The position numbers and the translations under genes are program-made. A stretch of DNA of 64,000 nucleotides from the IMG/VR virus record IMGVR_UViG_3300017991_000004, positions 67,701 to 131,700 of that record. The stretch is one strand, 5' to 3'. Under the pieces are notes generated by a model. The model was given only the letters and a program-made list of their open reading frames with translations, was not told the DNA's origin and did no database searches. Shown one piece after another: positions 651-61,362 of this stretch. Position 1 is the stretch's first letter. Each line of letters begins with the position of its first letter. Source of the DNA: a virus.

Positions 651-949
651 AGGACCTCGACTTGAACATCTATAGTGAGCCAGTCGTCGCTACACCGCGC
701 CGTCTTCCCGTCAAATGGGACATAAAGGTTTTCGTTGAAGACCACTCCATCGGCGCAGAGGTGATAGTGCTGGACACCATGGCGAAGGAGTTGCAGTTCA
801 GGATGACGAATCCTTGGTGGGTTCTCACCTTCTTCGGTGCGATGTATTTATTTGAGCGTCTGCTGACTGGGGCAGCCAAAGCCTTGCTCGGGAAACCGTA
901 CCGCAAGCGGCGGTGGGTGGACATCAAGTCTGCTGGCACCAGCAGATAG
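620..949 (+). CDS. hypothetical protein with one hydrophobic segment; last 6 codons formed by the 18-bp palindrome
   Basis: ORF track; ends SAGTSR*; start uncertain. Confidence 0.5.
   Translation: MAHRRREKQIKDLDLNIYSEPVVATPRRLPVKWDIKVFVEDHSIGAEVIVLDTMAKELQFRMTNPWWVLTFFGAMYLFERLLTGAAKALLGKPYRKRRWVDIKSAGTSR
929..946. repeat. 18-bp palindrome copy (17/18)
   Basis: TCTGCTGGCACCAGCAGA. Confidence 0.9.
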
Positions 950-950
950 G

Positions 951-964
951 CGCAAGCGATTGCG
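951..964. promoter_or_regulatory. 14-bp YGCAAGCGATTGCR motif copy
   Basis: CGCAAGCGATTGCG directly before the RBS of gene 973. Confidence 0.7.
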
Positions 965-972
965 GAGGAACC

Positions 973-1161
973 ATGTGCAAGTATTGCGACTGGGAAGACA
1001 TGCTCGCCACCATCGAGGAGATGATGGACGACGATGATTTCGACTTCGCCTACGACACCCTTTCAGGTATCAAGGATTGGGTGGAGGAGAATCACCACAT
1101 CACCGAACGGCAAACGGAAGCCGTGAACAATATCAGGGAATCCATTGAGAGGAGACGTTGA
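973..1161 (+). CDS. hypothetical acidic protein
   Basis: GGAGGA RBS, ATG973. Confidence 0.6.
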   Translation: MCKYCDWEDMLATIEEMMDDDDFDFAYDTLSGIKDWVEENHHITERQTEAVNNIRESIERRR

Positions 1162-1523
1162 TGGTGGACGGGGAAAAGGAACCGCAGGAGGAAACTACGG
1201 AAACGGAAGAGGAGTACCAGAAGCGGCGCGACGAAACCCTCTGGCGCTTGCAGAACGAGTTCACTGTTCTGGACCTGGAGGATGTTCTCGTCGACTTGAC
1301 GGACCTGGACCTCGACCCGTCCCTCATTTTCGACGACAACGGCAAGTGGGCTTGCGGCCGCAGATGGTTCGGCTACATCCTCTCCGAACCGGGCTGCGAC
1401 TACCAGACCACTGTCGTCATTCCGGGTGACGACTTCTGCGACAATCCGCGCGAAGCGGTGAAGCAGTTCATCCAAAGGTGCATTGACCTCGACAAGAAGG
1501 AGAAGGAGAAAAACGATGCCTAG
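1161..1523 (+). CDS. hypothetical protein
   Basis: GAGGAG RBS; coupled to upstream gene. Confidence 0.6.
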   Translation: MVDGEKEPQEETTETEEEYQKRRDETLWRLQNEFTVLDLEDVLVDLTDLDLDPSLIFDDNGKWACGRRWFGYILSEPGCDYQTTVVIPGDDFCDNPREAVKQFIQRCIDLDKKEKEKNDA

Positions 1524-2070
1524 AGAGTTCGAGGATTTTGAACTGAGGCCGGTCAAAGAAGGCTTCTGTCACTTGTGCGGGAACCTCTGGCACACAAAGC
1601 CAGGAAACTCCCTGCCGGAATATCTCAAGTACGGCGTATGGGAGTTGGCGGGCTTCCAGGTGTTACAGAGAGGTAGCCGAAAGAAAACTATTCTCCTCTG
1701 TAACGATTGTCTCTCCCTCGTCCACCTTACCAGCATGGAGGTCATGCGGGCGCACCTCAAGTGGCTTGACCAGGAACTCAAGGTAGCGGACGCAGAGGGA
1801 AGGCGTCCTCGAATCAGTGAAGTGGGGTATCACCTGCTGATGGATTACCGCAAGCGATTGCAGAAGGAACTAGGTCCGAAGAACTCCTGGTTTGCGGGCA
1901 AGTGTACCCTCTGTACTTTCCCAGTAGTCGTGACGCAACCGGATGCAGAGTTGTTTCCGCACGCAGATTATTGGTGGTATTGTTCCAACCCGAAGTGTGA
2001 GCGCCACTCCCCTGGCACGCATACGGACGATATGGAGCAGCCCGAGTGGGTTCAATTAAGTGAGGTATAA
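1516..2070 (+). CDS. hypothetical Cys-rich (Zn-binding) protein
   Basis: AAGGAG RBS; several CxxC pairs. Confidence 0.6.
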   Translation: MPREFEDFELRPVKEGFCHLCGNLWHTKPGNSLPEYLKYGVWELAGFQVLQRGSRKKTILLCNDCLSLVHLTSMEVMRAHLKWLDQELKVADAEGRRPRISEVGYHLLMDYRKRLQKELGPKNSWFAGKCTLCTFPVVVTQPDAELFPHADYWWYCSNPKCERHSPGTHTDDMEQPEWVQLSEV

Positions 2071-2071
2071 C

Positions 2072-2293
2072 ATGCTGGTTATCAAGACTACCCGGTACGA
2101 GCTAACGGTAGAGGAAACCAAGGACGCCTTTGTGCAGTATCTCTACCGAAAGTTTCCCGATTTCGAGGTGCATCTCAAAAAGGGCGGCAGCTTCGATAGT
2201 GACTTCGTGCCGACGGAAGACGGCTTTGTCGTCAACGTCGAGTTCACTGTCAGCTTTCCCGCGACTAACGGAGGGGCCGATGGGATTGTTTGA
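2072..2293 (+). CDS. hypothetical protein, paralog of 8558..8749
   Basis: shares RYELTxEET...DFVPxExGFVxNVEF with 8558..8749. Confidence 0.65.
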   Translation: MLVIKTTRYELTVEETKDAFVQYLYRKFPDFEVHLKKGGSFDSDFVPTEDGFVVNVEFTVSFPATNGGADGIV

Positions 2294-2771
2294 CTATGAC
2301 GATATAGTCTGCGGCCTGTGCGAGGGCCAAAACGTCGCGATGGTGCCTCTAATGGAAATCCATTTAGAAGGACCGAACACGATGTACCCTGTCGCCGCTT
2401 GTCGTGACTGCGGTTTCCTGTTCATTCCCCCGAACGAGGTTGTCAAACAAAAACGCGCCGAATGGGGAAAAGCAATACGGACACAAAACCGTAAACCCGT
2501 ACCAAAGGGGATAATCAAACTCGACCCTGAGAAAGTCGCACCAGTGTCTCCTGCTGAATCTAAGCGGCAAGGTTCACCTATTTGCGAAAAGTGCGGAAAG
2601 AAAATGAAGTTGGATAATACTTCAACCGCCCGTTACACCGTCTTCCTTCTTTGGATATGCCAATGTGGCTTTCAAAAGATAGAGAAACAGCGTGAGCACT
2701 TCGAAGAGGAACCTTCTGACGAAGAACTGAAAGACATTGACAAGGAAAAGGACGATGAACTTACCTCCTGA
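2280..2771 (+). CDS. double Zn-ribbon hypothetical protein
   Basis: GGAGG RBS; CGLC/CRDC/CEKC/CQC. Confidence 0.6.
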   Translation: MGLFDYDDIVCGLCEGQNVAMVPLMEIHLEGPNTMYPVAACRDCGFLFIPPNEVVKQKRAEWGKAIRTQNRKPVPKGIIKLDPEKVAPVSPAESKRQGSPICEKCGKKMKLDNTSTARYTVFLLWICQCGFQKIEKQREHFEEEPSDEELKDIDKEKDDELTS

Positions 2772-3216
2772 GTGCGAACATCAATACGAAGTCCGACCCG
2801 GCAAGTGCCCGTTCAAGGCGGTGTGGGTTATCTTCTGCAAAACGGACAACACTCGCACGCTCGTCTGCCAAAGGCACTTCGAGGATTACTATTTCGAGCC
2901 GGAGAAGACGTATGTGATATTCGGTGCAAAGGACTACTCGATTCACGGCGGCCATGACCTTCCGGCCCGAAAGAAGTTCCCGGAGCCTCGAGACAGGTAC
3001 ATCGCGTTTCTTCAGAGTCAGCCAAAGGGCGGCGAGAGAATTGTGTGTCCCGTCATGTGCGGCAAATGTTGCAGTTCTCTTGACTACACCTGCTCCCATC
3101 TGACGGAGACAGGATGCGACTTGCCTGTGGAGGAGCGACCGGTTCACTGCAACATCTATCTGTGCGAAGCAGCCAAGCGAGTCCTTGAATTGGAGAGAAA
3201 CCTTCGCCATGAGTAA
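2755..3216 (+). CDS. Cys-rich protein with possible Fe-S/Zn cluster (CxxxCGxCC...C...RP..C..Y.C)
   Basis: CPVMCGKCC and ERPVHCNIYLC resemble the YkgJ/CxxCxxCC motif. Confidence 0.5.
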   Translation: MNLPPECEHQYEVRPGKCPFKAVWVIFCKTDNTRTLVCQRHFEDYYFEPEKTYVIFGAKDYSIHGGHDLPARKKFPEPRDRYIAFLQSQPKGGERIVCPVMCGKCCSSLDYTCSHLTETGCDLPVEERPVHCNIYLCEAAKRVLELERNLRHE

Positions 3217-3541
3217 AGAATGGTATGACGAGAATTGGAAGGCCAAAGAAACTCCTGAGTTTGTTGCCTTCTGGCTAGAGTGGTACGGCCACGAAGAAGA
3301 CTACGCCGACCCTGACGAGTATTGGATTCGTCGTGGCTTCGCGTTAGCAGGATGGATTAAACGTGACGAATGGCGCGGAAAGAAAGTTCCGAAAGGCCCC
3401 GTCGCAGGAACTTGCTGCGCCTGCGGATATTCAGGCTCGAAGTCATCCTATTGTCCCTCTCGGGAAGAGTTAGTTCACTGCGAACATTGGTGGGACGGCT
3501 CTACTAGCCGAGACAAACGCTCTGCTGGTACCAGCAGATAG
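3209..3541 (+). CDS. hypothetical protein; last 6 codons formed by the 18-bp palindrome
   Basis: GGAGA RBS; ends SAGTSR*. Confidence 0.6.
   Translation: MSKEWYDENWKAKETPEFVAFWLEWYGHEEDYADPDEYWIRRGFALAGWIKRDEWRGKKVPKGPVAGTCCACGYSGSKSSYCPSREELVHCEHWWDGSTSRDKRSAGTSR
3521..3538. repeat. 18-bp palindrome copy (exact)
   Basis: TCTGCTGGTACCAGCAGA followed by TAG. Confidence 0.95.
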
Positions 3542-3558
3542 CACTGTGTGAGGGGAAC

Positions 3559-3804
3559 ATGAAACCTACATTACCGGCCCATGCTGTGCCTGATGCCAAC
3601 GGCTTCCTCGAATGGCACGGGCAGACTTTTGTTCAATTCGGCGGCGCGAACAAGCTCCACATTGCGAATGATTGGAACTTTCCTTTATGCGGCGCGTTTT
3701 CCCCTCAGCCCATGAACCATCCTGAATACGCTTGTGGAAGAAAGTGGCCAGTTTGCATAGCGTGTCGCCGCATATTCGCAGAAAATAATAGTAATGATAA
3801 TTAG
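3559..3804 (+). CDS. hypothetical protein
   Basis: GAGGGG RBS. Confidence 0.55.
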   Translation: MKPTLPAHAVPDANGFLEWHGQTFVQFGGANKLHIANDWNFPLCGAFSPQPMNHPEYACGRKWPVCIACRRIFAENNSNDN

Positions 3805-4990
3805 GAGATTACCGATGGAACTTAAACTTCGTCTCACCATCGAGGGCGCTGACCAGGAAGAGACTTACAAGGAGATAGAACTCCTGAGCACCTGGCTTGG
3901 CTGGTTAGCCTACGCCTCACCCATCGGACCTGTGCCGGGGTGTCTTCTGCGGCTGAATGAAAAGGTTAAAAAATGGTTGGAGAACTACAAGAACTTTCAC
4001 AACTACCCCGACAACCGCGTCTGGAATCAGTGCCCTCCTGAAGGAGTGCTTGCCAAAGACCACTACGCCTCTTTCGGATGGTTTCTGACATACCTCCAGA
4101 ATACGGTATACGCCCGCACGGAGCGGTATGTACCTGACACACTCCAAATTAGTCCTAACCTCTGGCCGGTAGTTGCGAATGTAGCAGGTTGGGAGGATGC
4201 ACCTAAGGAGCAACTAGCCGTCGAGTGTAGTCCAAAACGAGTGGGCAAGTTAGCTCGGCATAATTTGACGGTGTGGGCGGACGCCTCCCTACCCCCTGGA
4301 GGCTTGCTCTATTACTCGTGTGGGGTAGTGCGGCATCCTGACACTAGTATAGACTTCAAGGTTATCGACGAAAAACCTGGTCAGGGATACTTCCCGCTGC
4401 CGGATGACGAATGCCCGCTCTGCAAGAACGGAACCATAGCTTTCGAGGAGGGTGAACTTCGCTGTCGCGGTGAATGCGGCACTATCTGGCGAAAGCCTTT
4501 GTCATCGGAATGGCTGGCGCACACAGGCGAGTTGCTCGCCAAGTTAAAACCTTACTTTGACGAAGTGAACAAACCTTCTCCGCCCCTGCCGCCTGGTAAG
4601 CGTAACATCTCTTACTACGAACAAGAAGGCGCTTTCGTCGAACCTATTGAACTTACTGATATGGTTGGCAATAAAACCTTCTTGACGAAAGAAACTAAAC
4701 CTGTCTATTCGACAGGCAAAGCCTTTCACAAAATCAACGCCGCCAATATCCGAAAAATGTTAGAAACCGAAATGGCGCACCTCACTGCGGCTACTGCGAC
4801 CAAAACAATTCCTGAAATAGAGGGGCAAATATCTGCGCTGTTAAAGCGTATCCTTATTCAGGCACGACCTATACCCAAGGTGACGGTGAAAGAAAAAGAA
4901 ACAGGCGGCATTGAAGTACAGTTCAGTCATCCGAATACTGACTCACCAATGACTACGGAACAACTCTACGCTTACTTAGGATTGACTTAA
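3794..4990 (+). CDS. hypothetical protein with internal Zn ribbon
   Basis: 398-aa ORF; CPLC...CRGEC; AGGAG before the alternative ATG. Confidence 0.7.
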   Translation: MIIRRLPMELKLRLTIEGADQEETYKEIELLSTWLGWLAYASPIGPVPGCLLRLNEKVKKWLENYKNFHNYPDNRVWNQCPPEGVLAKDHYASFGWFLTYLQNTVYARTERYVPDTLQISPNLWPVVANVAGWEDAPKEQLAVECSPKRVGKLARHNLTVWADASLPPGGLLYYSCGVVRHPDTSIDFKVIDEKPGQGYFPLPDDECPLCKNGTIAFEEGELRCRGECGTIWRKPLSSEWLAHTGELLAKLKPYFDEVNKPSPPLPPGKRNISYYEQEGAFVEPIELTDMVGNKTFLTKETKPVYSTGKAFHKINAANIRKMLETEMAHLTAATATKTIPEIEGQISALLKRILIQARPIPKVTVKEKETGGIEVQFSHPNTDSPMTTEQLYAYLGLT

Positions 4991-5134
4991 TAGTGACTAT
5001 TCTCCGCTGCCACTACTGCGAACGAACAGATAACTTACAGATGCAACTATGTAGCTATTGGTTCTGCTTCCCATGCCTGCCCCGTGCTCTGAAGAAAGGC
5101 GCAAGCTACTGGTGGAGGCTCGCGCACAAAAGAT

Positions 5135-5211
5135 AGCCCTGTAGTTCAATCGGATAGAACAACGGATTTTGGGTCCGTAGGTTCCCGGTTCGAGTCCGGG
5201 CAGGGCTTCCA
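5135..5211 (+). tRNA. tRNA with TTG anticodon (nominally Gln), CCA encoded, atypical identity elements
   Basis: AGCCCTG/CAGGGCT acceptor stem, GTTC/GAAC D-stem, ACGGA/TCCGT anticodon stem with TTTTGGG loop, CCCGG-TTCGAGT-CCGGG T-arm, T-CCA end. Confidence 0.9.
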
Positions 5212-5223
5212 ATTTTGAAAGGG

Positions 5224-5493
5224 ATGTCAGTGTCTTATGTCGAACTGAAAGCAACGGCGCTAAGTCGCTACCTGCGAACCGCCTACCCAAAAGGTGCGTG
5301 GGGTTTGCATGACTTCCGGTTCATCCCTCCCTTCGGTTCTTTTGAGAACTTCAAAAGGCTGATGGATTCCATAGGACCTGTTCCGACACACTCCGAAGCC
5401 TTACGGGCGTGCGTCACTGTCGAACCGTTGCCTGTAATGAAGGAGACAAATAATGAAACCTGTTTCAAAGAAAACAACAGTGCTGGAAATTAA
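5224..5493 (+). CDS. hypothetical protein
   Basis: ORF directly after the tRNA. Confidence 0.45.
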   Translation: MSVSYVELKATALSRYLRTAYPKGAWGLHDFRFIPPFGSFENFKRLMDSIGPVPTHSEALRACVTVEPLPVMKETNNETCFKENNSAGN

Positions 5494-5752
5494 CCTGCGT
5501 CTCTACGAAGTCAAAGCGACGAAGGATATGCTAGATAGTCCACTCGTCGCGGAGAGGGATAACGTATCGCTGTTCCTCGAACCGGCTCCAATGCTGGTGC
5601 CGTTTCCCGACAAGGGCAAATGGGGAATGGTTTGCTACGTCACCATCGGAGAACGCGTATTCAAACTCTTCGCCAAAGACCTTGCGAAGACGTTGGACGA
5701 GGTAAGCAAACTGGGGGTCCTTCTTACAGACGACGAATGTGACCATGAGTAG
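5453..5752 (+). CDS. hypothetical protein
   Basis: AAGGAG RBS. Confidence 0.6.
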   Translation: MKPVSKKTTVLEINLRLYEVKATKDMLDSPLVAERDNVSLFLEPAPMLVPFPDKGKWGMVCYVTIGERVFKLFAKDLAKTLDEVSKLGVLLTDDECDHE

Positions 5753-5821
5753 GTCACTGACGGGATGCACCTCAACGTATTCTGTAGAAAGTGTTTCATC
5801 GACAAGCCGAAGGAGTAAGTC

Positions 5822-6700
5822 ATGAGCTTTCACCTGTTCTACCACGATACTACCACATACAAAACCTACACGCTGTCCGGTCTGCGAAACCTTTCGGACC
5901 TTAGAAAAATTCTGGAAGGAATGACAGGAATGGAGCCTGGACCGGGAAACCCTACTGCTGACGAAAAGTATCTGTTGGACAAATACATCGAGAAGGTAAG
6001 TCAACCTGGCGTATCAGCCGCGGGGGCACTCTACGAAGCCGTGGCGGACTTGGAGAACGTATTCGCCTTACGGAGAAGGAAGGCGCAGATAAAGGCGGCC
6101 ATACACGCTAGTGACTTTGAGGCACACATCATCAACGTCGTTCGACTCGATGCCACTCCTCTTGAGGCGTTGAAACACTATGTGCAGAGTGCAGGCGAAG
6201 GTGTCCCTACTGCCATCGCCAATCATCCCCAGCATGGATGGGCGGTTATCTCTTCTGCGGGACAAGGCCCGTTCTTCCTCTGGAAAGAAAAACCTGCAAA
6301 GACAAGCCTGTCGATGACGGACGCCATCGAAGAGGAAAATCAGTTGCAGAAGACGATGGATGCTGTGACATTTACTTCTGAGGGTGGGTATTCATTAGAC
6401 AACTGTGTTGCCGATGACATCTTTCGACTGAAAGGTGACGTACCTCTCTGCGTCTGTGCAGATACTAACAAAATCGCGCGGATGCGGGCCAGGCGATACT
6501 TCCCTGACATCCCGTTGAAACACATCCTCATAGTTACTCCGAGCAACTGGGAGAAAATTCGCGGCCGAAATTTACTCGCCTGCTACACCAAAGGTAGCCT
6601 ACCGCCCGGAGAGGCGCGTAGGATGGTTATGTATCGTATCGAGTCTCGAGGATGCGGCTTGTGCAAAGACTACAAACCGCTTCCGATGTTCCTTGGTTAA
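5822..6700 (+). CDS. hypothetical protein
   Basis: AAGGAG RBS; 292 aa. Confidence 0.7.
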   Translation: MSFHLFYHDTTTYKTYTLSGLRNLSDLRKILEGMTGMEPGPGNPTADEKYLLDKYIEKVSQPGVSAAGALYEAVADLENVFALRRRKAQIKAAIHASDFEAHIINVVRLDATPLEALKHYVQSAGEGVPTAIANHPQHGWAVISSAGQGPFFLWKEKPAKTSLSMTDAIEEENQLQKTMDAVTFTSEGGYSLDNCVADDIFRLKGDVPLCVCADTNKIARMRARRYFPDIPLKHILIVTPSNWEKIRGRNLLACYTKGSLPPGEARRMVMYRIESRGCGLCKDYKPLPMFLG

Positions 6701-6711
6701 GGAGAACTCCA

Positions 6712-7281
6712 ATGGGTTCCGTCCGCTGCCGTTTCTGTCACACAATTTCGTCTACCACTGCTTCACCAAACGATATTGATGGAGTCTTTGTCACCGACAA
6801 AGTGTTGGAATCGTTCTCCGCAGGCATCGACGGCATCAACAACATGGTAGACCTGTCGCGGGAACTATACAAAAGAGGCCGGCAGGGATTCTTGTGCCCG
6901 CACTGCCAGAAAGTAAACTTTCTCCAGCAACCGAAACTGTTGGGATACTGCGCTCGATGTCACTCGGCTATCACTGACAATGACGAATGGTTTGAGAGTG
7001 CAGACCGAACCGTTTGCCTTTGCTCGAAGTGTGCGGAGAATGAAACAGGCGCCCGGATTCCCGGTTCGATAGACGCTGAAGAGATTAGCTACGAGGAAGA
7101 GCCTTGCGTGAAATGCGGCAAGCCCGCCGATTGCCAGTACGCGAATCCTTCCCATCCCGAGAAACGTCCCTTCTGCCTGGATTGCGTTGTCGAAGAGCAT
7201 GAAGCAGAACTCAAAGAGCATAAGAAGCTACTCAAAGCAAAGTCTTGCAAACGCTGTTTGGGAACGGGAGAGGCTCGTTAA
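6712..7281 (+). CDS. multi-Zn-finger hypothetical protein
   Basis: AAGGAG RBS; at least 6 CxxC pairs. Confidence 0.65.
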   Translation: MGSVRCRFCHTISSTTASPNDIDGVFVTDKVLESFSAGIDGINNMVDLSRELYKRGRQGFLCPHCQKVNFLQQPKLLGYCARCHSAITDNDEWFESADRTVCLCSKCAENETGARIPGSIDAEEISYEEEPCVKCGKPADCQYANPSHPEKRPFCLDCVVEEHEAELKEHKKLLKAKSCKRCLGTGEAR

Positions 7282-7434
7282 TCGTCGCCCTGGGAGTAGC
7301 GTGCTAGTTCCTTGACCGCTATGCGAACTGGGAACTCGCGTATGGCCCAAAGGTTGAGGGGAGAATTGACAACCTGGAGAAACGGATAGAGGCGTTGGAG
7401 AAAAGTAAGTAAATCCTGGTAAGGAAAGTGACCT

Positions 7435-7887
7435 ATGCACATCAAAGCAGAACCCGAAAAGCTGCAAGGGTGTCCCTTCCGACACGACATGAACATCCCG
7501 GCACACGCCTATTGCTGGCTGAAGGAGGAAGCCGAAAAGGATGCGTGCCACTCTGAAGCCATTCCAGAGTGGTGCCCGTTGAAGAAGGGACCAGTGACCG
7601 TGAGCATCCCAGAGAGCGAAGAGAAGGCACCGCGCTGTGCTAGGTGCGGCTTGACGGAGGGCATCTTCTATCCCGAGCCGGATGGCACCGTCCTCTGCCA
7701 ACCCTGCTCCAAGAAGGATGAAACTCCGCTCGTCTTCCCGGCTGGCTTCAAGGGCAAGAGTACCCAAGAGGTTTTGGCGTGGATTCTCAACTGGATTCAC
7801 GAACACAACCAAGTGTCACACATCCCTGGACTGAATGAGATGGATGTTCAAAGGATGATAGACGAAGGGCCGACCTGTTTCGGATAG
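7435..7887 (+). CDS. Cys-rich hypothetical protein
   Basis: AAGGA RBS; IPEWCPL and CxxC motifs. Confidence 0.6.
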   Translation: MHIKAEPEKLQGCPFRHDMNIPAHAYCWLKEEAEKDACHSEAIPEWCPLKKGPVTVSIPESEEKAPRCARCGLTEGIFYPEPDGTVLCQPCSKKDETPLVFPAGFKGKSTQEVLAWILNWIHEHNQVSHIPGLNEMDVQRMIDEGPTCFG

Positions 7888-7897
7888 GAGGTATCCC

Positions 7898-8083
7898 ATG
7901 TTCTACAGGGCAACCATGATGTCCATGAAATGGTACGCAATCGAAATCGACTCAGTGGAAGACGATGCAGAGAACATCGAGGAGTTCGCTTCCCAGGGAA
8001 CGGCGGTTGTTATCGTGGACGACCTGGAAGTACTCTCTTCCTTCGGCGCATACGAGGTCGTTCTGGTTGAGGATGATGATTGA
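7898..8083 (+). CDS. small acidic hypothetical protein
   Basis: AGGAGG RBS. Confidence 0.55.
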   Translation: MFYRATMMSMKWYAIEIDSVEDDAENIEEFASQGTAVVIVDDLEVLSSFGAYEVVLVEDDD

Positions 8084-8274
8084 TGTTTGGCAGACAAAAG
8101 AGCTTTAGGATAGGGGACACAGTTACGGTGTGCGGTTTCAAGTCATGGGGTCCGGCGCATGTAACTGGAAAGAATGAGGACGGCACATATTCTGTCGCCT
8201 TCGTTGAAGGTCCGGGGCACAGCAGCATCAAGTCAGTCAAGGTCACGAACCTATTCCTCAGAAAACACTTTTGA
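8083..8274 (+). CDS. small putative SH3/Tudor-like protein
   Basis: FRIGDTV...WGPAHVTGKNEDGTYSVAF pattern. Confidence 0.45.
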   Translation: MFGRQKSFRIGDTVTVCGFKSWGPAHVTGKNEDGTYSVAFVEGPGHSSIKSVKVTNLFLRKHF

Positions 8275-8284
8275 AGAGTTAGGT

Positions 8285-8542
8285 ATGTCTGAGTCACAAG
8301 TGCCGAAGGGTGGGTATCATTCCGCAGACGTTGCTTATGCAGCGATGGACTACTTAGGCTACCCAAAGCGGGGCAGAATCTTCTTCCTTGAATACACCAC
8401 TACCCATCTGCCTATCTATATCGCATCCACGAACCACAAGGTGAGAGCAGAATACAAGGACCAGATGCGAAGGCGCATGGGTACTGTTATCCGCGCACCA
8501 TTTCCGAACCTTAGTGCAGAAGATGTCATGAACGCAGAGTAA
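8285..8542 (+). CDS. hypothetical protein
   Basis: ORF in operon context. Confidence 0.5.
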   Translation: MSESQVPKGGYHSADVAYAAMDYLGYPKRGRIFFLEYTTTHLPIYIASTNHKVRAEYKDQMRRRMGTVIRAPFPNLSAEDVMNAE

Positions 8543-8557
8543 TGTGGAGCATTCCCA

Positions 8558-8749
8558 ATGGAAATCAAAAGAACATTCAGGTACGAGCTTACCGCCGAGG
8601 AAACACGGGCTGCCGTCCTTGCCTATGTCTCCGCACGGCACCCATCTGTGGGCTTGCACGCGGAGAGGGGCGGGGCGGTCGATATAGACTTTGTTCCTGA
8701 TGAAAAGGGTTTCGTCGCCAACGTCGAGTTCAGTACGGTAGGCGAGTAA
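8558..8749 (+). CDS. hypothetical protein, paralog of 2072..2293
   Basis: see 2072..2293. Confidence 0.65.
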   Translation: MEIKRTFRYELTAEETRAAVLAYVSARHPSVGLHAERGGAVDIDFVPDEKGFVANVEFSTVGE

Positions 8750-8760
8750 CTACAGGAGAA

Positions 8761-9150
8761 GTGATACCAATGAAGAGGATATTCGACTGGATAGAACGCA
8801 TGAGGGCGCACAAGCACGCAGGCATCGACAACCTGGAACGCTTGGCGAAGGACGTAAGCGCGGACACGCAGGCACTCAAGGCCAAGGTGGAAGAAAAGGA
8901 CCGGACCATCTCCATCCTGACCTCTGCCTCGATACACAAAGGCAAGGAGTGTAACAGGCTCAAGGCCGACCTCGCAGCGGCAAAGGAGATTATTGAATTG
9001 GGTATGGACGAAAAAGTAAAGGTGGGTAAACTTCGCCAAACTTTAGAGTCCATCATTATACGGTGCGAGGAAGGCAGTAAAGAAACTGACTGGCTGCCCA
9101 TTATCGCCAACATCGCCCATGAAGGACTCAAGGCAACCCAATCAAAATAG
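8761..9150 (+). CDS. coiled-coil hypothetical protein
   Basis: AGGAG RBS. Confidence 0.6.
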   Translation: MIPMKRIFDWIERMRAHKHAGIDNLERLAKDVSADTQALKAKVEEKDRTISILTSASIHKGKECNRLKADLAAAKEIIELGMDEKVKVGKLRQTLESIIIRCEEGSKETDWLPIIANIAHEGLKATQSK

Positions 9151-9220
9151 ACAATTCCATATATGGAAACTCTCCTATCCCGAACGGGCCTTATATAGAG
9201 TACCTTTGAAGGAGACCGTC

Positions 9221-9673
9221 ATGTCGCTCGATGTCTACCTTGAATTGTCCGGCCCCATGCCCGCAACAAAGGGCACTGGCATTTTCATCCGAGAAGACGG
9301 GCAGACGAAAGAACTTACCCGCGAAGAGTGGGACGCAAAGTTTCCTGGCAAGGAACCTCTTGTCGTCGTGCCAGAGAAGGCAGAGACAGATGTGTACTGG
9401 TCGAATATCACAAGCAACCTTCACCGGATGGCGCAGGAAGCAGGCATTGGGGATTACCTGTGGGACCCGAAGAAGGCAGGCGTCACCCACGCCAGGGATT
9501 TAATCGACCCTCTGATAGTCGGGCTGTATAAACTCGAGAACGACCCGGAGAGGTATCAGAAGTTCAACTCTCCGAACAGAAGGGGCTCCCACGACAACCT
9601 TGTGAAGTTTGTTACCAACTACCTGGCAGCGTGCCAGAAGTATCCTGAAGCAGTAGTTCGTGTATCTCGTTAA
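9221..9673 (+). CDS. conserved phage hypothetical protein
   Basis: AAGGAG RBS; MSLDVYL...NITxNL..MA.EAGI..LW.P pattern recalled from many phages. Confidence 0.7.
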   Translation: MSLDVYLELSGPMPATKGTGIFIREDGQTKELTREEWDAKFPGKEPLVVVPEKAETDVYWSNITSNLHRMAQEAGIGDYLWDPKKAGVTHARDLIDPLIVGLYKLENDPERYQKFNSPNRRGSHDNLVKFVTNYLAACQKYPEAVVRVSR

Positions 9674-9684
9674 AGGAAGTAGGC

Positions 9685-9981
9685 ATGGGTGAACCTCTGA
9701 AGGAAAAGGAACTGCGTGAACTAGCGACCTGTCAAATCTGCAAAGAGAAGATTGGGCAGAAACAGGTCCCTATTCTGTGGAAGGTGAGGGCAGAGCGTCA
9801 CGGGTTGGATTCCCACGCTCTCCGCAGACAGCAAGGATTGGGAATGATGATAGGCGCTCCTCTGGCGCAGGTCATGGGACCGGATGAAGACATGACCAAG
9901 GTGCTGGCAGATGTAACATGCATGGTCTGTGACGTTTGCATGATAGAACGGCTCCCCGAATTGTTTGAGAAGGAAGACTAA
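9685..9981 (+). CDS. hypothetical Zn-binding protein
   Basis: CQIC...CDVC. Confidence 0.6.
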   Translation: MGEPLKEKELRELATCQICKEKIGQKQVPILWKVRAERHGLDSHALRRQQGLGMMIGAPLAQVMGPDEDMTKVLADVTCMVCDVCMIERLPELFEKED

Positions 9982-9982
9982 G

Positions 9983-10138
9983 ATGACTGCATCTACTATG
10001 GTCAAGTGGAATGTCTACCTGGGCGATTGTCTGGTTACGTCAGTGTGGTACTCTAAGGACTGCAACAAAGAGTACGTCAAAAGGACGTTGATTGAACACG
10101 ACGGCCACAATCCCGACATCGAAATAAAGAAGGGGTAG
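9983..10138 (+). CDS. small phage hypothetical protein (51 aa; below ORF-track cutoff)
   Basis: MTASTMVKWNVYLGD...LIEHDGHNPDIEIKKG, read manually. Confidence 0.55.
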   Translation: MTASTMVKWNVYLGDCLVTSVWYSKDCNKEYVKRTLIEHDGHNPDIEIKKG

Positions 10139-10143
10139 TAATT

Positions 10144-10338
10144 ATGCGTTATCCAAAACCCTCTCCTGAGCAGTTAGGCTGGATAAAAGAGTTCTGGAAC
10201 GCCAGGGAGCTTTCGCACGGGCAGGGATTCTTCCGCATGGTTGATGCAGTCAAGAAGCTGGAAGAAACGGGGTATCTGGAAAAAGGAATGAAAATGCCTT
10301 CCCTTGATACTTTGTACGCTCAACACGATATTCTCTAG
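10144..10338 (+). CDS. hypothetical protein, last gene of the + block
   Basis: ORF with AAGGGG RBS. Confidence 0.55.
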   Translation: MRYPKPSPEQLGWIKEFWNARELSHGQGFFRMVDAVKKLEETGYLEKGMKMPSLDTLYAQHDIL

Positions 10339-10733
10339 AACCTGTCAATATCCGCGTATATCTACTCTCTCTCTCTCTCTTTCTTTCTCTCTTGTGACAT
10401 GCAATCGCTTGCAGTGTGTAAATCCGGCGTGTATTCAGATACAAGTAACACATAGTCTGTAATTTCCATATATGCTAACTATCCCTCTGCGGCATTTTGC
10501 GAACAAGTAACAAGAGTCAGATGTTTACGGATGGTTTACGGATAATTTGCATATATGGAAATGGTGCTCTGAATTAGGGCATACCCAGGTGCATAATTGT
10601 CTGGTGCCCGCTGTTCTACCCCCGGTTCCTCCCCTACCCCTACCCCTCCTTGATGGTCCTGTTCCGTGGCGGCGTTTCCGGCCGCTATACGGCCCGTTCT
10701 GTAAGGCTGTTTTGGGAATAAACACACCGGCTA

Positions 10734-10751
10734 TCTGCTGGTACCAGCAGA
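10734..10751. repeat. 18-bp palindrome copy (exact; extends to 22 bp TATCTG...CAGATA)
   Basis: direct reading. Confidence 0.95.
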
Positions 10752-10838
10752 TAATTCCTGTATGCCTGTAGTGTCCGTTTCCCCTTCCAAAATACGGCGG
10801 GTTATGCGGCGTTCTACGGCCCATGTTACTCCCCTTAA

Positions 10839-10917
10839 ATAGTTGATAACGGCGATAGTTGATAACGTTGATTATGGCCTAGCGCCGGCCGTTATCAACT
10901 ATATCGTTAGCAACTAT
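10839..10917. repeat. four iteron-like 13-mers ATAGTTGATAACG (two forward, two reverse)
   Basis: 10839-10851 and 10855-10867 forward; 10890-10902 and 10905-10917 (1 mismatch) reverse. Confidence 0.85.
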
Positions 10918-11142
10918 TTATACGTTATTATGGCCGCCGCAGGCGGCCTACATCACACACGCACACGACACTATACATTTCCATATATGCAAATACGGCA
11001 CACACTCCGTAGCCCTCCAAAACGGCGCCACGCCACATACTACCCTTACACAACCCGTGTAGCCCCAATGGCTTCCATTTCCATATATGGAAACTAGACG
11101 GTATCCCGTCCCACCGTATGCACGTTCAGCGAAACGGTCCTA

Positions 11143-11222
11143 TACGTTTTCATGCCTACCCCTACGTTTTCATGCCTACCCCCTATTTTTCATACCTATC
11201 TCCTGATTCTCATACCTACTAA
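11143..11222. repeat. 20-bp tandem repeat, 4 decaying copies
   Basis: TACGTTTTCATGCCTACCCC x2, then two degenerate copies in register. Confidence 0.8.
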
Positions 11223-11398
11223 TGCGTATAGTTACTACTACTATTAGTATATGCTCTCTTACTGCCGGCTTTTTGAAAAATACTATGCCGGAAGACTTGG
11301 TGCAATCGCTTGCGGTGACGCCATAAAAATAGCGACCTGACTAAACTACAAGTCTAATCAGGCCGCCTTATGACTTACCTGACGCGGTCAGCAAGGCA

Positions 11399-12382
11399 CT
11401 ACTGGGGCTGCGTCAGTTCGTCAGCGTGGTCATTGTCAAACTCCTGGAGTCTCTTCGCGACTAGCTGGTTTTGGGCCTTGGTCAGCGACATCTGCTTGTA
11501 GTTCTCGCGGACAGCACCAATGGTGGCATGGCCTACGTCGAGGAATTTGTTCCGCAGAACTTTGGTGAGACCCAGATTGCCAATGTGCCAATCGTTTAGG
11601 CAGTCCTGCTGGGTTAAGGTCTTGCGCTCCTGGGCTTTCTTGGCCTTCTTGGGCTTGTTGAGTATTCTTTTCTCAAAAGATGTGAGAACCGGCTGGTCAT
11701 ACGTGACCTGCATGGTAGGTGTGCGTCCTAACACGCCTCTTTTATCCGGATTACACGCCCACACCTCGTTGACTCTTTTGAGCATTTCCTCAGTCAAAGT
11801 AACTTGCCAGGTTGTACCCCAGAGACCCGCGCGGGCGCGCAGGAAGGCTCTCCACCGACCGTATGCCTTGGTAGGATTGTCTTTGGGATGGCAGAGGGCA
11901 ATCCCGCGAGTCACTATTACGGGACAGCTTTTCATTTTTGCCCTTAAAAGGCAGACAGTGACAACTGGTTGCGACTTGCTGTCTCGCAGGTAGTAGAAGA
12001 ACAACTCTGCTTTTGAGGAGCTGTGGGGTGGAAGGTGCTTGTCGAGCATTTCCTGCGGAGAAGGTCTGTGACCTTTAGGATACTTCGCCTCCCACACTGT
12101 GTGGGGAGCACTCTGCTCCTCGAGGTACTGCTCGAAAGTCAGCAGTGGTAGGCGAGGCCGACGCTTGTGGCGCTCGTTTTTGCGGCGCTCTTTGTCGAAC
12201 TCTACGAGCCGCGAGAACCGCCGACGACACTGCGGACAGGCACAGCGCACGGTAACCTCTTGGCCAGGAGCGCATACTCCCATGGCAGCGAAACCAGGCG
12301 GCAGCACAGTCTTGACCAAACCGTTGCACTGGTGCTTACCTTCAGCGCAACTGTCACAAAGGATTTTAACTCTCGGAGCCAT
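11399..12382 (-). CDS. hypothetical protein: N-terminal Zn finger, C-terminal RNAP alpha-CTD-like domain
   Basis: AGGAGG RBS; DWHIGNLGLTKVLRNKFLDVGHATIGAV. Confidence 0.65.
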   Translation of the reverse strand: MAPRVKILCDSCAEGKHQCNGLVKTVLPPGFAAMGVCAPGQEVTVRCACPQCRRRFSRLVEFDKERRKNERHKRRPRLPLLTFEQYLEEQSAPHTVWEAKYPKGHRPSPQEMLDKHLPPHSSSKAELFFYYLRDSKSQPVVTVCLLRAKMKSCPVIVTRGIALCHPKDNPTKAYGRWRAFLRARAGLWGTTWQVTLTEEMLKRVNEVWACNPDKRGVLGRTPTMQVTYDQPVLTSFEKRILNKPKKAKKAQERKTLTQQDCLNDWHIGNLGLTKVLRNKFLDVGHATIGAVRENYKQMSLTKAQNQLVAKRLQEFDNDHADELTQPQ

Positions 12383-12402
12383 GCCTTCCTCCTTAATAGG
12401 GA

Positions 12403-15779: not shown

Positions 15780-15787
15780 GGTGTCTC

Positions 15788-16909: not shown

Positions 16910-16919
16910 GGCTGTTCTC

Positions 16920-51106: not shown

Positions 51107-51566
51107 TTAACTGCGCCTTTGCAAACCTGTCCGCCATCTCATTAAAGAGAATCCCGGCGTGACCTTTTACCCACTTCAGTTTGAACGGAGACTTGAAGTA
51201 CAGTTCCTTCGCCCTCCGCACAACACCCGGATGCGTCTTTGATGGAAACTCGCCTCGAATTGCAGAGAGGGAAAACTTGCTGTCTGAAAATACTGTAGCC
51301 CTCTTCGCTTTTAACCGATGCAGGTAATAGAGCGCCCAGTAGACTCCACTCAACTCTGCCGACTGACTCGATACCTTCGTCACTCCTATGAACATTGATG
51401 CGAACGGGTCTGTCTCAACATAACCGCTATACCAAGCGCTGACTTCTCCAGCGTTATGAACCTTAAGGTCAGGCTTCTCCACAATTACAATGGCCCATGC
51501 CGCGCAAGGTCCATACGCTTTTCGATGCCCTACAACTGCTCCATCGGTATAGACGGCTATCGTCAT
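51093..51566 (-). CDS. rnhA: ribonuclease HI
   Basis: YTDGA, AEL, SDSKF, WVKGHAG..FNE.AD. Confidence 0.9.
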   Translation of the reverse strand: MTIAVYTDGAVVGHRKAYGPCAAWAIVIVEKPDLKVHNAGEVSAWYSGYVETDPFASMFIGVTKVSSQSAELSGVYWALYYLHRLKAKRATVFSDSKFSLSAIRGEFPSKTHPGVVRRAKELYFKSPFKLKWVKGHAGILFNEMADRFAKAQLNGQV

Positions 51567-51583
51567 CTGCTGGTACCCGCAGA
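51566..51583. repeat. 18-bp palindrome copy (17/18) filling the dnaB-rnhA junction exactly
   Basis: TCTGCTGGTACCCGCAGA between the dnaB stop and rnhA ATG. Confidence 0.9.
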
Positions 51584-58846: not shown

Positions 58847-58848
58847 GA

Positions 58849-60441
58849 CTAACCTCCCCATGCCACGTTAGCCAGGTCGTAATCAGTCAACTCGATATAA
58901 CCGATAACGCACATGGCGAACAACGCACTGTTAAGAATGGTGACTGTGAGATTGACCTTACGAGTCGCGTCAAGTTGCAACCAGAACCCGTCGTAATTGT
59001 GGTCTTCATCTCCAGACACAGTGGCTTCGTTGTAAATCTCTTTGATGAAGGCATCACAGTTAGCGCACTGCTCGAAAATACCCATGTTATTGCTAGTGTT
59101 CCACTCTAGTTCAGCGTTAACTGTTGAAGGACCGCCATCCTCCTGGGCCATAGAGTATGTATTGACAAAGGCACACATCGCAATGGGCGATACATGCTCT
59201 GACATATCAATCGCTGTAGTGACCAAGTTTGCAGTCCAAAGCAAGTCTTCCGCGTGCCCTGCACAATTACCCGTGGCTCCTTTGCTCTTTCCGCTGCCCG
59301 TGGGCTGAATCTTCTGAACGTAGTTGTCGTACTTGACCATCGGAACGGCTTTGGGCGTAGCGCTCCCGTCACCTTCGATGCAAGTGACAAGACGCCATAC
59401 AGTGTAAACATCTGCGCCGCCGGTAAACGCCGGGTCGGTCAGTCCAGGCCCCACAGTGGGGTCATTCGTGGAATACACCAGCGCAACCGCACCGGTGTTC
59501 GGCGCACCAATCGCGTAGGCATATAACCAACCGTTCTGGAAATTGACTTGCAGTGCGTCAGTGTCGTCGGCTCCGCCTGGCCCGATATTGTTTCCAGTAC
59601 CTCCTGCATCCACAGGAAATAACGTGAGCAACTCTGCCACTGACGGGTCAATGTCAAACCAAAATGTCGCATCGTTCCACGCCCGACCTTGAAACTGGTG
59701 TAACAGCCAATTGTAGTTGTTGTTGTTCGGAAGAACTGTCTGGTCGCGACACGCGAAGAGGCAAGTCGTAGACCGGGCGTGCGGTGTAGCCAGAGACGCC
59801 TGCGCTGCTGCACTGAGCTTGTGAATATGGTCCCGCCGCGAGTACACAAACAACGACCCTGGCGATTCTCCGCTGAGTTCGACGTCTTCCGGGTTCACCC
59901 CATCAACGTTGGGAACGTGCTGGTGGTCGATAGGGACACGATTCCAGTTCGTGCCTAGTACAGCTACTGCACCCGCAGTGTTGTCCGACTGAATTGAGCC
60001 CACTACGCCGCGCTGGAGATTGTTCATGTAGGCGCGAATGAGCGTAATGTCGGTGACAATGACGACTACACCACCTGCTTCGTCCACCTGCACCCAGGCA
60101 AGCGGAAAAACGGTAGCTGCCGTGAAAGGAGACCCGTTGCCCGGAGCCCCTGTGTAATCGGCGACAGGAGTGATTTGCTCCGCACCGGCCTCGACCTGTG
60201 CAACTCCCTGGTCGTCCAAGTACACCAAGTCCCACCGAACTCGCCCTGCCCCACTCACAGCTCCGAATGGTCCTGCGGTCTGAGCAGCCTTTTGATACAC
60301 CTGACCGTCAGAATGGTTTGTGAAAAACCCTGCTCCGACGTTCACCAGGTTGTCAGCAGGAGCCCGTTCTGTTACCTCGAAACCATCGAGGTCCGGCCCT
60401 AGAGTGACCTGTCTTTTCTGAAGTTGCGGAGGTGATGCCAT
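58849..60441 (-). CDS. virion structural protein (tail fibre-like)
   Basis: G/A/T/N-rich; R.DLVY.D..G; YSRRDH.H motif; tail context. Confidence 0.6.
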   Translation of the reverse strand: MASPPQLQKRQVTLGPDLDGFEVTERAPADNLVNVGAGFFTNHSDGQVYQKAAQTAGPFGAVSGAGRVRWDLVYLDDQGVAQVEAGAEQITPVADYTGAPGNGSPFTAATVFPLAWVQVDEAGGVVVIVTDITLIRAYMNNLQRGVVGSIQSDNTAGAVAVLGTNWNRVPIDHQHVPNVDGVNPEDVELSGESPGSLFVYSRRDHIHKLSAAAQASLATPHARSTTCLFACRDQTVLPNNNNYNWLLHQFQGRAWNDATFWFDIDPSVAELLTLFPVDAGGTGNNIGPGGADDTDALQVNFQNGWLYAYAIGAPNTGAVALVYSTNDPTVGPGLTDPAFTGGADVYTVWRLVTCIEGDGSATPKAVPMVKYDNYVQKIQPTGSGKSKGATGNCAGHAEDLLWTANLVTTAIDMSEHVSPIAMCAFVNTYSMAQEDGGPSTVNAELEWNTSNNMGIFEQCANCDAFIKEIYNEATVSGDEDHNYDGFWLQLDATRKVNLTVTILNSALFAMCVIGYIELTDYDLANVAWGG

Positions 60442-60465
60442 TGTCCGTTCTCCTTTAAGTCCTGC

Positions 60466-61326
60466 TTACCAGCGCAGGTGACGGAAGTACAGCACGTCGA
60501 TGGCCGGTCCTTGCAGCGTAATCGACGTGAGTGCAATCCCCTTGAGTGCACCAATAGTGGTTTCGATGTAGTCCCGCGTGTAGTAAAGCCGCTGACCGTT
60601 CAGGTACACTTCCAGGCGCTTGGCCCCGACCACAAAGTCGATAGGAACCACTACCTGAGTCTCACCGCCTGCGGCGTCGTAGATGTAGTCTTCCACAGTG
60701 TATGACGAGCCCACCAGCGAAACTCCGTAGCAGGCTTCCTCGCAGGCATCCAGCACACTGAACGTCAGCATCCAAGTGAAGGTCATGCTGAACGCAGCGG
60801 TCTTGACGATGCTGAATCCTGTCTTCCGGGCGAACATCGTTCCGGCCCCGAACGGATTGGTGAACAGCCCTGCCTCTGTAAAGGTGAAACCATTGCCCTC
60901 GCCGACCGCCCAGGTTGCTACAAAGGTTGCAGTGTTGTTCAGCACTGTGGGTGCAACTGCCTTTTGTTGGCCGGTAGTTTGCTCCAGAGTGGTGTCCGAC
61001 AACGAAGGCGGTGTCGCAGGGGCAGGGTCGCCAAGTTCGATGTACCCGATTTCCGAGTTGGCGATACCCGCAGCCATCGCAGCCATCAGGGAAGCGGCTT
61101 GCGAAACGACCAGGTTCTTGTCTTCGAGAACCACGGTCTCTTCGCCAGTTTCGGCGTCCTTCAGGACAACCTTCACCGACCCTCTTACGAGAGGGCCAGG
61201 GTCACCGAGAGCAATACTGGACTGTCCTTTCGCTCCCTTGTGCGCGAGACCGGGTATCGCAGGAGGCGTGCCTACCAATGAACGGTAGAGTTGCTTCCTG
61301 AGTTCTACGTCGCTTTTCTTCACCAT
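60466..61326 (-). CDS. tail collar/baseplate-associated protein
   Basis: NLVV...G.G...P...DT.L...NG....EAGLF....MFARK....I.K; VYLNGQ. Confidence 0.65.
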   Translation of the reverse strand: MVKKSDVELRKQLYRSLVGTPPAIPGLAHKGAKGQSSIALGDPGPLVRGSVKVVLKDAETGEETVVLEDKNLVVSQAASLMAAMAAGIANSEIGYIELGDPAPATPPSLSDTTLEQTTGQQKAVAPTVLNNTATFVATWAVGEGNGFTFTEAGLFTNPFGAGTMFARKTGFSIVKTAAFSMTFTWMLTFSVLDACEEACYGVSLVGSSYTVEDYIYDAAGGETQVVVPIDFVVGAKRLEVYLNGQRLYYTRDYIETTIGALKGIALTSITLQGPAIDVLYFRHLRW

Positions 61327-61344
61327 TGGACACTCCTTGAAACA

Positions 61345-61362
61345 TCTGCTGGTACCAGCAGA
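61345..61362. repeat. 18-bp palindrome copy (exact), abuts a stop codon
   Basis: direct reading. Confidence 0.95.

Follow-up and report, generated by a model that had tools for sequence, protein, structure and literature searches.

An 18-bp palindrome dispersed over the genome of an uncultured large tailed phage, and a ParB-family candidate for its reader

The IMG/VR virus record IMGVR_UViG_3300017991_000004 contains a stretch of 64,000 nucleotides (positions 67,701 to 131,700 of the record; hereafter the window, meaning this whole stretch) that is part of an uncultured large tailed phage. Its genes encode a T4-like portal and large terminase (TerL), a family A DNA polymerase (PolA), DnaB, a helicase loader, a primase, a RecA-like protein, two junction resolvases, a Cas4-like exonuclease and a UDG-family protein. 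Dispersed among these genes are 19 copies of an 18-bp palindrome with the core half-site CTGCTGG on each arm, 14 of them exact, four with one mismatch and one with three, corresponding to approximately one copy per 3.4 kb of the window. A pattern search reproduced all positions listed in an earlier note, which had been made from the letters of the window. Dinucleotide-preserving shuffles gave an expectation of 0.02 copies (largest value, 1), compared with the 19 observed. Isolated 8-mer half-sites occur in the window in only one or two extra copies each, without enrichment, indicating that the unit is the whole palindrome.

Copies of the palindrome and their placement

The 19 copies are listed below (ORF, open reading frame; L numbers denote loci and contigs of relatives, which are described in the next section).

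929-946: one mismatch (central T to C); last 6 codons (SAGTSR) plus stop of the plus-strand ORF 620-949
3521-3538: exact; last 6 codons of the plus-strand ORF 3185-3541, with the next gene from 3559
10734-10751: exact; middle of a ~1-kb non-coding repeat-rich region (10340-11330), a candidate origin
13577-13594: exact; 65 nt past the stop of the minus-strand ORF 13660-13941, before the next ribosome-binding site; kept in L029 and L069
14056-14073: exact; flanked by a strong minus-strand terminator (14116-14090) and, on the other side, by a sigma-70-like promoter match (14012-13984); probably not transcribed
21052-21069: exact; abuts both the queD (PTPS) stop and the ribosome-binding site that follows
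24889-24906: exact; junction of two minus-strand genes, immediately ahead of the ribosome-binding site of 24580-24873
27096-27113: one mismatch (position 1); the order is stop of 27114-27659, palindrome, ribosome-binding site, ATG of a phosphoenolpyruvate (PEP)-utilising enzyme
29207-29224: exact; non-coding leader of a ParB-family gene, proximal member of a pair
29306-29323: exact; 99 bp from the 29207 copy, just after the terminator 29435-29410
31670-31687: degenerate, three mismatches; 1 nt past the stop of 31689-32945, overlapping the ATG of a RuvC-like gene
32718-32735: exact; within the long ORF 31689-32945 (codons 71-76); relatives have at this place the boundary between a small upstream ORF and the main gene, and L081 has its own palindrome there (11096)
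38566-38583: exact; inside a Mor-like gene, encoding SAGTSR; L026, L009/L080, L081 and L083 keep the place, using the palindromes of their respective lineages
42087-42104: uncompensated stem variant; abuts the recA stop; the orthologous site of L081 (974) abuts the L081 recA stop
43615-43632: exact; lies between the stop of 43633-43968, which it abuts, and the recA ribosome-binding site
46548-46565: exact; 3 nt past the stop of 46569-46850
51566-51583: uncompensated stem variant; abuts the dnaB stop; exact copies at that junction in L002, L006 and L007
55258-55275: exact; last codons (LLVPAD) plus stop of the UDG-family gene, a junction that also has the palindrome in L005 and L010
61345-61362: exact; abuts the stop of 61363-61833; L039 and L074 have a copy at this junction too

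Thirteen of the 19 sites lie in tight co-directional gene junctions in the order stop, palindrome, ribosome-binding site, start; the others comprise one junction that is read through in frame (32718), one in-gene copy (38566) and four copies in longer non-coding stretches. Six sites directly abut a minus-strand stop codon (queD at 21070, 27114, recA at 42105, 43633, dnaB at 51584 and 61363), the gap between stop and site is 1 nt at 31670 and 3 nt at 46548, and the palindrome itself forms the final codons at 929, 3521 and 55258, exactly as read in the earlier note. The enrichment next to stop codons, for which that note had proposed a check, is strong: considering ORFs of at least 60 amino acids, 8 of the 19 sites begin 0-3 nt past a stop, for a random per-site probability of 0.020 (binomial P 1.7e-9), and in 4 of the 19 the palindrome fills the last 6-7 codons (P 2.8e-5). 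Such a snug fit at gene ends is the expectation for any exact 18-mer that is needed locally, because it is costly within coding sequence and the intergenic space is minimal. Only three sites (14056, 29207 and 29306) lie upstream of promoter matches, and the 13 tight junctions contain none. The spacing of the sites is slightly more even than random (coefficient of variation 0.64 vs 0.96, with 2.4% of random sets as even), a weakly supported tendency.

The flanks had been described as usually extending the symmetry, with a purine on the left and a pyrimidine on the right. The preference itself holds, with a purine at -1 in 15 of the 19 sites and a pyrimidine at +1 in 18, but the two flanks are mutually complementary in only five, and the preference is confounded because the abutting stop codons end in a purine and begin with T.

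The copy at 10734 lies in a non-coding region of ~1 kb (10340-11330) between the plus-strand and minus-strand gene blocks, bounded by a terminator (11367-11331). Its repeats comprise a second palindrome (ATTTCCATATATGGAAAT type) in four copies, ATAGTTGATAACG iterons in direct and inverted orientation, and 20-mers in tandem; the region is a candidate for the origin of replication. Also dispersed over the window is another motif, YGCAATCGCTTGC, with 10 copies at no more than one mismatch (952, 1850, 10400, 11301, 13554, 25785, 31138, 38402, 45643 and 55986), compared with 0.12 expected. The 18-mer sites 929 and 13577 each have one of these copies within 10 nt, and a further two bracket the origin-like region; YGCAATCGCTTGC may be the site of a second regulator.

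Conservation in relatives and change of the half-sites between lineages

The palindrome is real, conserved and genome-wide, and it is neither an artefact nor a host repeat. The exact 18-mer was found in 13 viral and 49 metagenome stretches, and its presence at orthologous junctions in several independent assemblies speaks against the adapter or assembly artefact that the earlier note had considered. A repeat of the host chromosome, also considered there, was not borne out: across one genome for each of 185,579 prokaryotic species (bacteria and archaea, 596 Gb), the exact 18-mer matched 10 times, always singly, and ~8.7 matches are expected by arithmetic for a palindrome in 596 Gb. A repetitive extragenic palindromic (REP) element of the host was rejected on the same count. 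Also rejected was a CRISPR origin, which the note had not recognised in the motif either, the copies being kilobases apart and not arrayed, and a reading as EcoP15I- or KpnI-type restriction sites was dropped because it would not explain the conservation at junctions.

Among the 72 loci found by the motif (the 10 genome loci counted), 26 share proteins with the window at 45-78% identity, and shared window proteins are absent from all 10 genome loci and from 36 metagenome loci. The exact 18-mer recurs in relatives at orthologous junctions, including those after dnaB and at the end of the UDG-family gene; the pair upstream of the ParB-family gene is kept in L011/L080, with the copies 76 bp apart, and the palindrome inside the homologue of 38377-38889 is kept in L026 and L009. 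Searching by the motif guarantees one site per locus, a bias that does not touch the further sites of a contig: four of the four window junctions covered by contig L074 have a site, and L080 has five sites, including the ParB-leader pair. No DNA nearly identical to the window was found among cultured phages, the nearest cultured TerL (32% identical) being that of the Maribacter phages Colly and Molly.

A motif-independent alignment of TerL yielded five contigs. Relatives with 77-78% TerL identity carry the window palindrome (one copy with one mismatch in L079, five copies in L080). In those with 67-71% identity (L081, L082 and L083), it is absent even at four mismatches, although the contigs are syntenic with the window. 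L081 carries a palindrome of its own, CTGTCGGnnCCGACAG, at three places orthologous to window sites: the place of 32718, the end of recA, where it directly follows the stop codon, and the interior of the homologue of 38377-38889, the Mor-like gene. L083 carries another, CTGACGGnnCCGTCAG, and has it at this last place too, there with one outer mismatch. Across the lineages the half-sites are CTGCTGG, CTGTCGG and CTGACGG; both arms change together and are uniform within a genome. The peptide dictated by the in-coding copy changes accordingly, from SAGTSR in the window (for example at 929 and 38566) to TVGPDS (L081) and FDGTVR (L083) at the aligned in-gene place. The positions are therefore old, and the half-site has changed on both arms in each lineage. 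In L081 the central dinucleotide varies (GA, TC, CA), with GA and TC, which are reverse complements, occurring in co-directional genes. G7 and C10 are fixed across lineages, though they cannot pair across the 2-nt centre in L081 and L083.

Scans with the L081 and L083 palindromes listed no further relatives: the L081 type gave 10 loci, of which only L081's own contig shares window proteins, and the L083 type gave at least 120 loci of chance matches, with weak PolA similarity in 2 of 120 and, among the matches listed, no relative. The TerL homologue of L083 is interrupted by ~1.1 kb (3857-4995, between matches at 3216-3857 and 4995-6482), with one L083 palindrome at 4084; the interruption may be an intein or a mobile insertion.

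A distant relative (G001) was found through DnaB (37% identity) on a 116-kb contig, 85% complete according to CheckV and syntenic with the window over ~55 kb. ParB-based locus scans of viral contigs recovered only this contig and that of L080. In G001 the window palindrome is absent at up to three mismatches, and seven copies of a different one, CTGTCGCTACCGACAG, are present: four lie where a giant gene begins, a fifth just ahead of another giant gene, beside a gene for a protein with a ParB_N domain only (site 15322, next to the homologue of the corresponding window gene), a sixth elsewhere, and the seventh between a terminator and the start of the ParB orthologue. The replication and packaging modules of G001 have no such sites, which suggests that the dense lattice arose by later expansion in the branch of the window, L081 and L083; the sparse seven-site version may be ancestral.

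The same contrast could be read as the spread of a selfish or neutral mini-palindrome, comparable to REP or MITE elements, into intergenic gaps without function for the phage, since, set against the tight junctions of G001, the copies resemble inserts of 18 bp, and the lattice is missing from its replication and packaging modules. However, the copies are conserved exactly at orthologous junctions while the flanking proteins have fallen to 45-78% identity, all copies change in concert between lineages, some have been written into coding sequence and kept there, the host-domain genomes hold none beyond chance, and no transposase was found among 90 scanned ORF products of the window. We regard a functionless element as very improbable. 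REP elements are described in the available text of PMC3733652 as imperfect 20-40 bp palindromes that are abundant in the host chromosome and mobilised by a Y1 transposase; a REP/RAYT system was rejected, the phage motif being a perfect 18-mer with single matches in host genomes and no transposase among the scanned ORFs.

Two further features of G001 were recorded. Its giant open frames, at 667-12726 and 15368-21517 (locus L086), comprise 4019 and 2049 codons and are each preceded by copies of the G001 palindrome, the ORF calls being crude on this contig of 63% GC. Near one contig end (locus L091, 101138-111901), seven near-identical sigma-70-type promoter cassettes (TTGAAA, 17 nt, TATAAT, then TAATAGACGG) lie on one strand.

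DNA site or RNA hairpin, and the candidate readers

As RNA, the motif folds into a 7-bp stem (-9.6 kcal/mol) with a GUAC loop, and a hairpin located within a few nucleotides of a stop codon can affect the upstream cistron, as reported for REP elements. The palindrome might thus be recognised in RNA at cistron boundaries by a sequence-specific factor of the phage or the host that processes or stabilises polycistronic mRNA or tunes translational coupling. The placement of sites just past stops (8 of 19) or in last codons (4 of 19) agrees with this, and pairing is preserved in the changes between lineages and in one compensated variant within a lineage (L004 3384). Two features weigh against a DNA site: the position of 13 of the 19 copies at tight junctions between a stop and a ribosome-binding site, which is equally expected of an intercistronic hairpin, and the stability of the hairpin itself. 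Yet the stems of a genome are identical in sequence and not merely complementary, and only 1 of 10 variant sites in relatives is a symmetric double change (that of L004), the rest being uncompensated. G7 and C10 are conserved even where they cannot pair, and the asymmetric centre occurs in both orientations in co-directional genes. Four window sites (10734, 14056, 29207 and 29306) lie in non-coding spacers, either between a terminator and a promoter match or in the origin-like region, and the G001 ParB site lies in a similar spacer, so that an mRNA signal is not expected there. No RNase III-like or Cas6-like gene is present among the 90 scanned ORF products, and the sole Rfam match in the window is a tRNA-Gln (anticodon TTG) at 5135-5211, in the plus-strand block. 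An intrinsic terminator was rejected: no T-run follows the palindrome, except for a chance case on the non-coding strand at 3521, and canonical terminators with a U-tract are found elsewhere in the phage. We consider an RNA signal unlikely, although it is the alternative that we would take most seriously.

The preference of the earlier note for a DNA site of a dimeric protein over an RNA hairpin is thereby supported by the uniformity of the stems, the change on both arms and the spacer sites, together with the linkage to ParB described below. The argument given there was the uncompensated stem variant. This variant does occur, at 42087, at 51566 and at one site of a relative (L074 1881), but taken alone it is a weak argument.

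The features that bear on the reader of such DNA sites are the following.

27790-28956, minus strand: ParB-family protein of 388 amino acids, candidate reader; ParB_N fold, HTH_ParB/KorB domain, GRQR and ENxxR boxes, and Lys-rich tails at both ends
28957-29435, minus strand: leader of the ParB gene, with a terminator (29435-29410), two palindromes, weak promoter matches (29085-29058 and 29017-28989) and a ribosome-binding site
27745-27778, minus strand: terminator directly after the ParB stop
14254-14967, minus strand: ParB_N-only protein, 22.8 bits (below the Pfam cut-off of 26.3), no helix-turn-helix (HTH), adjoining 7-deazaguanine genes
38377-38889, minus strand: candidate Mor-like dimeric HTH activator, rival reader, its own gene carrying site 38566

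Lying between two strong terminators, the ParB gene forms a single-gene transcription unit, and in the window only its leader, of 440 nt, contains two palindromes close together. The protein matches ParB_N (2.9e-9, 37.3 bits against the cut-off of 26.3), HTH_ParB (7.4e-6) and KorB (1.5e-4) in Pfam, and a profile of nine homologues matched Spo0J (6sdk, 8.7e-21), other ParBs, Noc (2.2e-16) and KorB (1.9e-4) among PDB entries, covering the N-domain and the HTH. The AlphaFold model (pLDDT 71.8) matches crystal structures of ParB, Noc and KorB over ~205 columns (Foldseek E down to 3e-11); the target-normalised TM score is 0.76 for the Noc DNA-binding domain (6y93), and the best over both domains is 0.64, for KorB chain 8qa9_B. 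R111 of the GxxR box (GRQR) and the arginine of ENEAR are invariant in nine of nine close homologues, with every other letter of the boxes varying in at least one. The C-terminal part is modelled as three helices (308-381, pLDDT ~75-84) and is conserved through G001, and Foldseek found no structural match for it. The orthologues P0002-P0009 include one at 45% identity and one on a 54.6-kb contig. A partner was not found: no ParA-type family matched among the 90 scanned ORF products of the window, AAA_31 (ParA) had no match in the 116-kb G001 contig (the control was positive in 14 of 14 genomes), and the N-terminus of the protein, a Lys/Ala tail, lacks an LG[KR]GL-type ParA-binding motif of the kind given in the available text of PMC12704722.

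The explanation that we favour, with a probability of roughly 0.55, is that the palindromes are double-stranded DNA sites composed of two half-sites, at which the orphan ParB dimer of the phage itself would load, by analogy with KorB at OB or Noc at NBS. ParB dimers would bind or load at each copy, as ParB, KorB and Noc do, and, if the CTP (cytidine triphosphate) switch works, would close into clamps and spread along the neighbouring DNA. A site every ~3.4 kb would place most of the phage chromosome within reach of spreading ParB. The two palindromes in the leader would provide autoregulation, and candidate purposes include genome-wide transcription control, as for KorB, or compaction or marking of the phage DNA, as for Noc and parS.

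Several observations weigh against this explanation. ParB is put forward as the reader by its linkage to the sites, and in the window a palindrome near ParB is weak evidence, since about one gene in five is flanked by a site; the linkage in G001 draws on seven sites. The record of site-and-reader co-evolution appears unusually clear, but covariation of ParB with the palindrome covers two motif classes only, and the L081 and L083 contigs end before the ParB region. Recognition-helix residues vary also among ParBs that probably share the palindrome. The G001 orthologue retains GxxR (GYNR) and lacks ENxxR, so CTP switching may not be general. The terminator and promoter calls, finally, are consensus matches only.

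A different dimeric phage protein could read the sites, with ParB being just one of the flanked genes, and the best candidate is the Mor-like HTH protein encoded at 38377-38889. Mor and C of phage Mu bind dyad-symmetric sites as dimers and activate middle and late promoters. Clusters of the Mor family in the ESM Atlas are similar to the phage protein (features 0.91, structure TM 0.68), the region of its C-terminal helix in L081/L083 is unlike that of the window clade, and uniform stems, two-arm change and untranscribed sites would fit this reader equally well. The site inside its gene, at a conserved position in five of five aligned close relatives with their own-lineage palindromes, tells against ParB as the reader. 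However, at 13 of the 19 sites the next start codon follows the palindrome at only ~12-25 nt, too close for a promoter to fit between an activator site and the gene. Neither within nor beside the gene of the G001 homologue (87547-87870) is there a palindrome, whereas the G001 ParB gene has one, and L081 and L083 have different palindromes with near-identical helices (RAYKAV vs RNYKAV). Searches of Pfam, PHROGs and PDB sequences assigned the protein to no significant family, so that the Mor assignment comes from one source. Reading by the Mor-like protein is, in our estimate, also unlikely, slightly more so than an RNA signal, and ParB is preferred.

The palindrome could also be the target of an enzyme, such as a site-specific nick, a hotspot for recombination (through RecA, RuvC or the Cas4-like protein) or a signal for 7-deazaguanine modification by a DpdA-like and the ParB_N-only protein. 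FolE, QueD, QueE-like and ParB_N-only proteins and several recombination nucleases are encoded in the window; site 14056 lies just downstream (180 nt) of the ParB_N-only gene, and G001 site 15322 is beside its homologue. Against this, at a density of one site per 3.4 kb modification would be of no value against restriction, an endonuclease of the nicking or homing type was not identified, the recombination genes show no tie to the palindrome, and a low-depth DNA run (17 of 30 bins covered, the sites barely) contained no breaks, joints or differences. An enzyme target seems to us quite improbable, and loading of ParB remains the better account of the sites.

The 7-deazaguanine set of the window (14254-21438) consists of FolE (19687-20262), a QueE-like radical SAM protein (20217-20873) and QueD (21070-21438), accompanied by a second radical SAM protein, an AAA_28 kinase-like gene, a nucleotidyltransferase, a glycosyltransferase (15788-16909) and the ParB_N-only protein, which is possibly an accessory protein. 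The gene content of this set suggests hypermodified DNA. The PEP-utilising enzyme encoded next to site 27096 (25251-27080) matches PEP-binding and mobile domains at 1.6e-60, and its conservation extends to L065 and G001. The proteins encoded at 29458-29994, which contains a run of ~60 Glu residues, and at 11399-12382 end in a similar helix-hairpin-helix-like segment (..NLGLTK.I/L.NK...G....G.V..), which in our impression resembles the C-terminal domain of the RNA polymerase alpha subunit.

Comparison with known systems and biological meaning

Among the roles suggested in the earlier note, a parS/Noc-type site fits best. Noc of Bacillus subtilis is a ParB paralogue without a ParA partner that binds dozens of dispersed palindromic sites distinct from parS, its specificity having diverged from that of parS by changes on both half-sites, and it tethers DNA to the membrane through an N-terminal amphipathic helix. 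The phage system shares with Noc an orphan ParB-family protein and dispersed palindromes, and the Noc structures 7ol9, 7nfu and 6y93 were matched. It differs in the N-terminus of the protein, a Lys/Ala-rich tail modelled at low confidence, in a far higher density of sites and in its phage context. Chromosomal and plasmid ParABS systems involve the same protein family, palindromes of the 16-18 bp class and sites beside the parB gene, but here no ParA was found, there are ~19 sites per 64 kb instead of a few clustered near the origin, the phage shows no sign of a plasmid-prophage lifestyle, and the palindrome presumably differs from the parS consensus.

The KorB/OB system of RK2 (IncP-1) resembles the phage system in a ParB-family protein with a CTPase-fold N-domain and an HTH and in one short palindrome repeated over a replicon at kilobase spacing; in the available text of the KorB papers, its sites lie both near and far from promoters, and KorB loads at OB sites as a CTP clamp that slides to act at a distance (PMC11790492, PMC13768133, PMC13584720). 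In contrast, the phage protein has neither a ParA/IncC partner nor a KorA/TrbA-like clamp-locking partner that could be identified, is nearer to chromosomal ParB and Noc by sequence, and is predicted only to load in a CTP-dependent manner. Most phage sites lie at junctions of a stop and a ribosome-binding site and not upstream of promoters, the replicon is a phage of ~132 kb, with the ParB gene product listed on a 131,719-bp contig, and the site sequence is unrelated.

The closest printed phage observation, as far as the available text of PMC4351075 goes, concerns the Cluster O mycobacteriophages. These apparently lytic phages carry more than 30 copies of a 17-bp dyad repeat, 5'-TGTTCGGNNNCCGAACA, with an invariant 7-bp inverted repeat and a variable, unoriented centre, located between genes, near gene starts and inside genes. 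The authors predicted a dimeric DNA-binding reader with a role other than promoter control; they discounted the protein with a ParB-like domain that the phages encode and named no reader. Dispersed dyad repeats, an unoriented centre and an encoded ParB-like protein are common to both cases, whereas Cluster O consists of unrelated Mycobacterium siphoviruses, the spacer is 3 nt there and 2-4 here, and no lineage switching is reported in that text. The same source describes the stoperators of Cluster A mycobacteriophages as asymmetric, oriented with transcription and bound by the immunity repressor; the stoperator-like network that the earlier note had offered as a role is a misfit and was rejected, the palindrome being perfect and the window showing no repressor or integrase. 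No phage lattice of ParB sites was described in the literature searched, most subscription journals falling outside it, and the available text of a ParB-fold survey that includes phages (PMC12704722) has 0 occurrences of 'palindrom'.

We tentatively go further and suggest, as an idea that may well prove wrong, that the palindromes are whole-genome loading sites for a partner-less ParB clamp that would coat only the phage DNA, a 'self-chromatin' that would time transcription or compact or shield the replicating genome. A handful of operator-like sites would have grown to several dozen, and the code of both half-sites would have been rewritten, over dozens of orthologous places, in step with the reader. 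The lineages would then amount to a natural experiment, in which the same positions with three half-site codes, together with the sparse seven-site version, would permit study of joint changes of specificity in a DNA-binding protein and its dozens of sites. For the dyad repeats of the Cluster O mycobacteriophages, so far unexplained, a candidate explanation would be gained. ParB-family CTP clamps are known as centromere binders (ParB), as a plasmid-wide silencer (KorB) and as a chromosome-to-membrane tether (Noc). If the proposal is true, a lytic-type phage that tiles its genome for an orphan ParB would be a fourth setting for these clamps, and it would suggest global organisation or regulation of phage DNA through sliding clamps.

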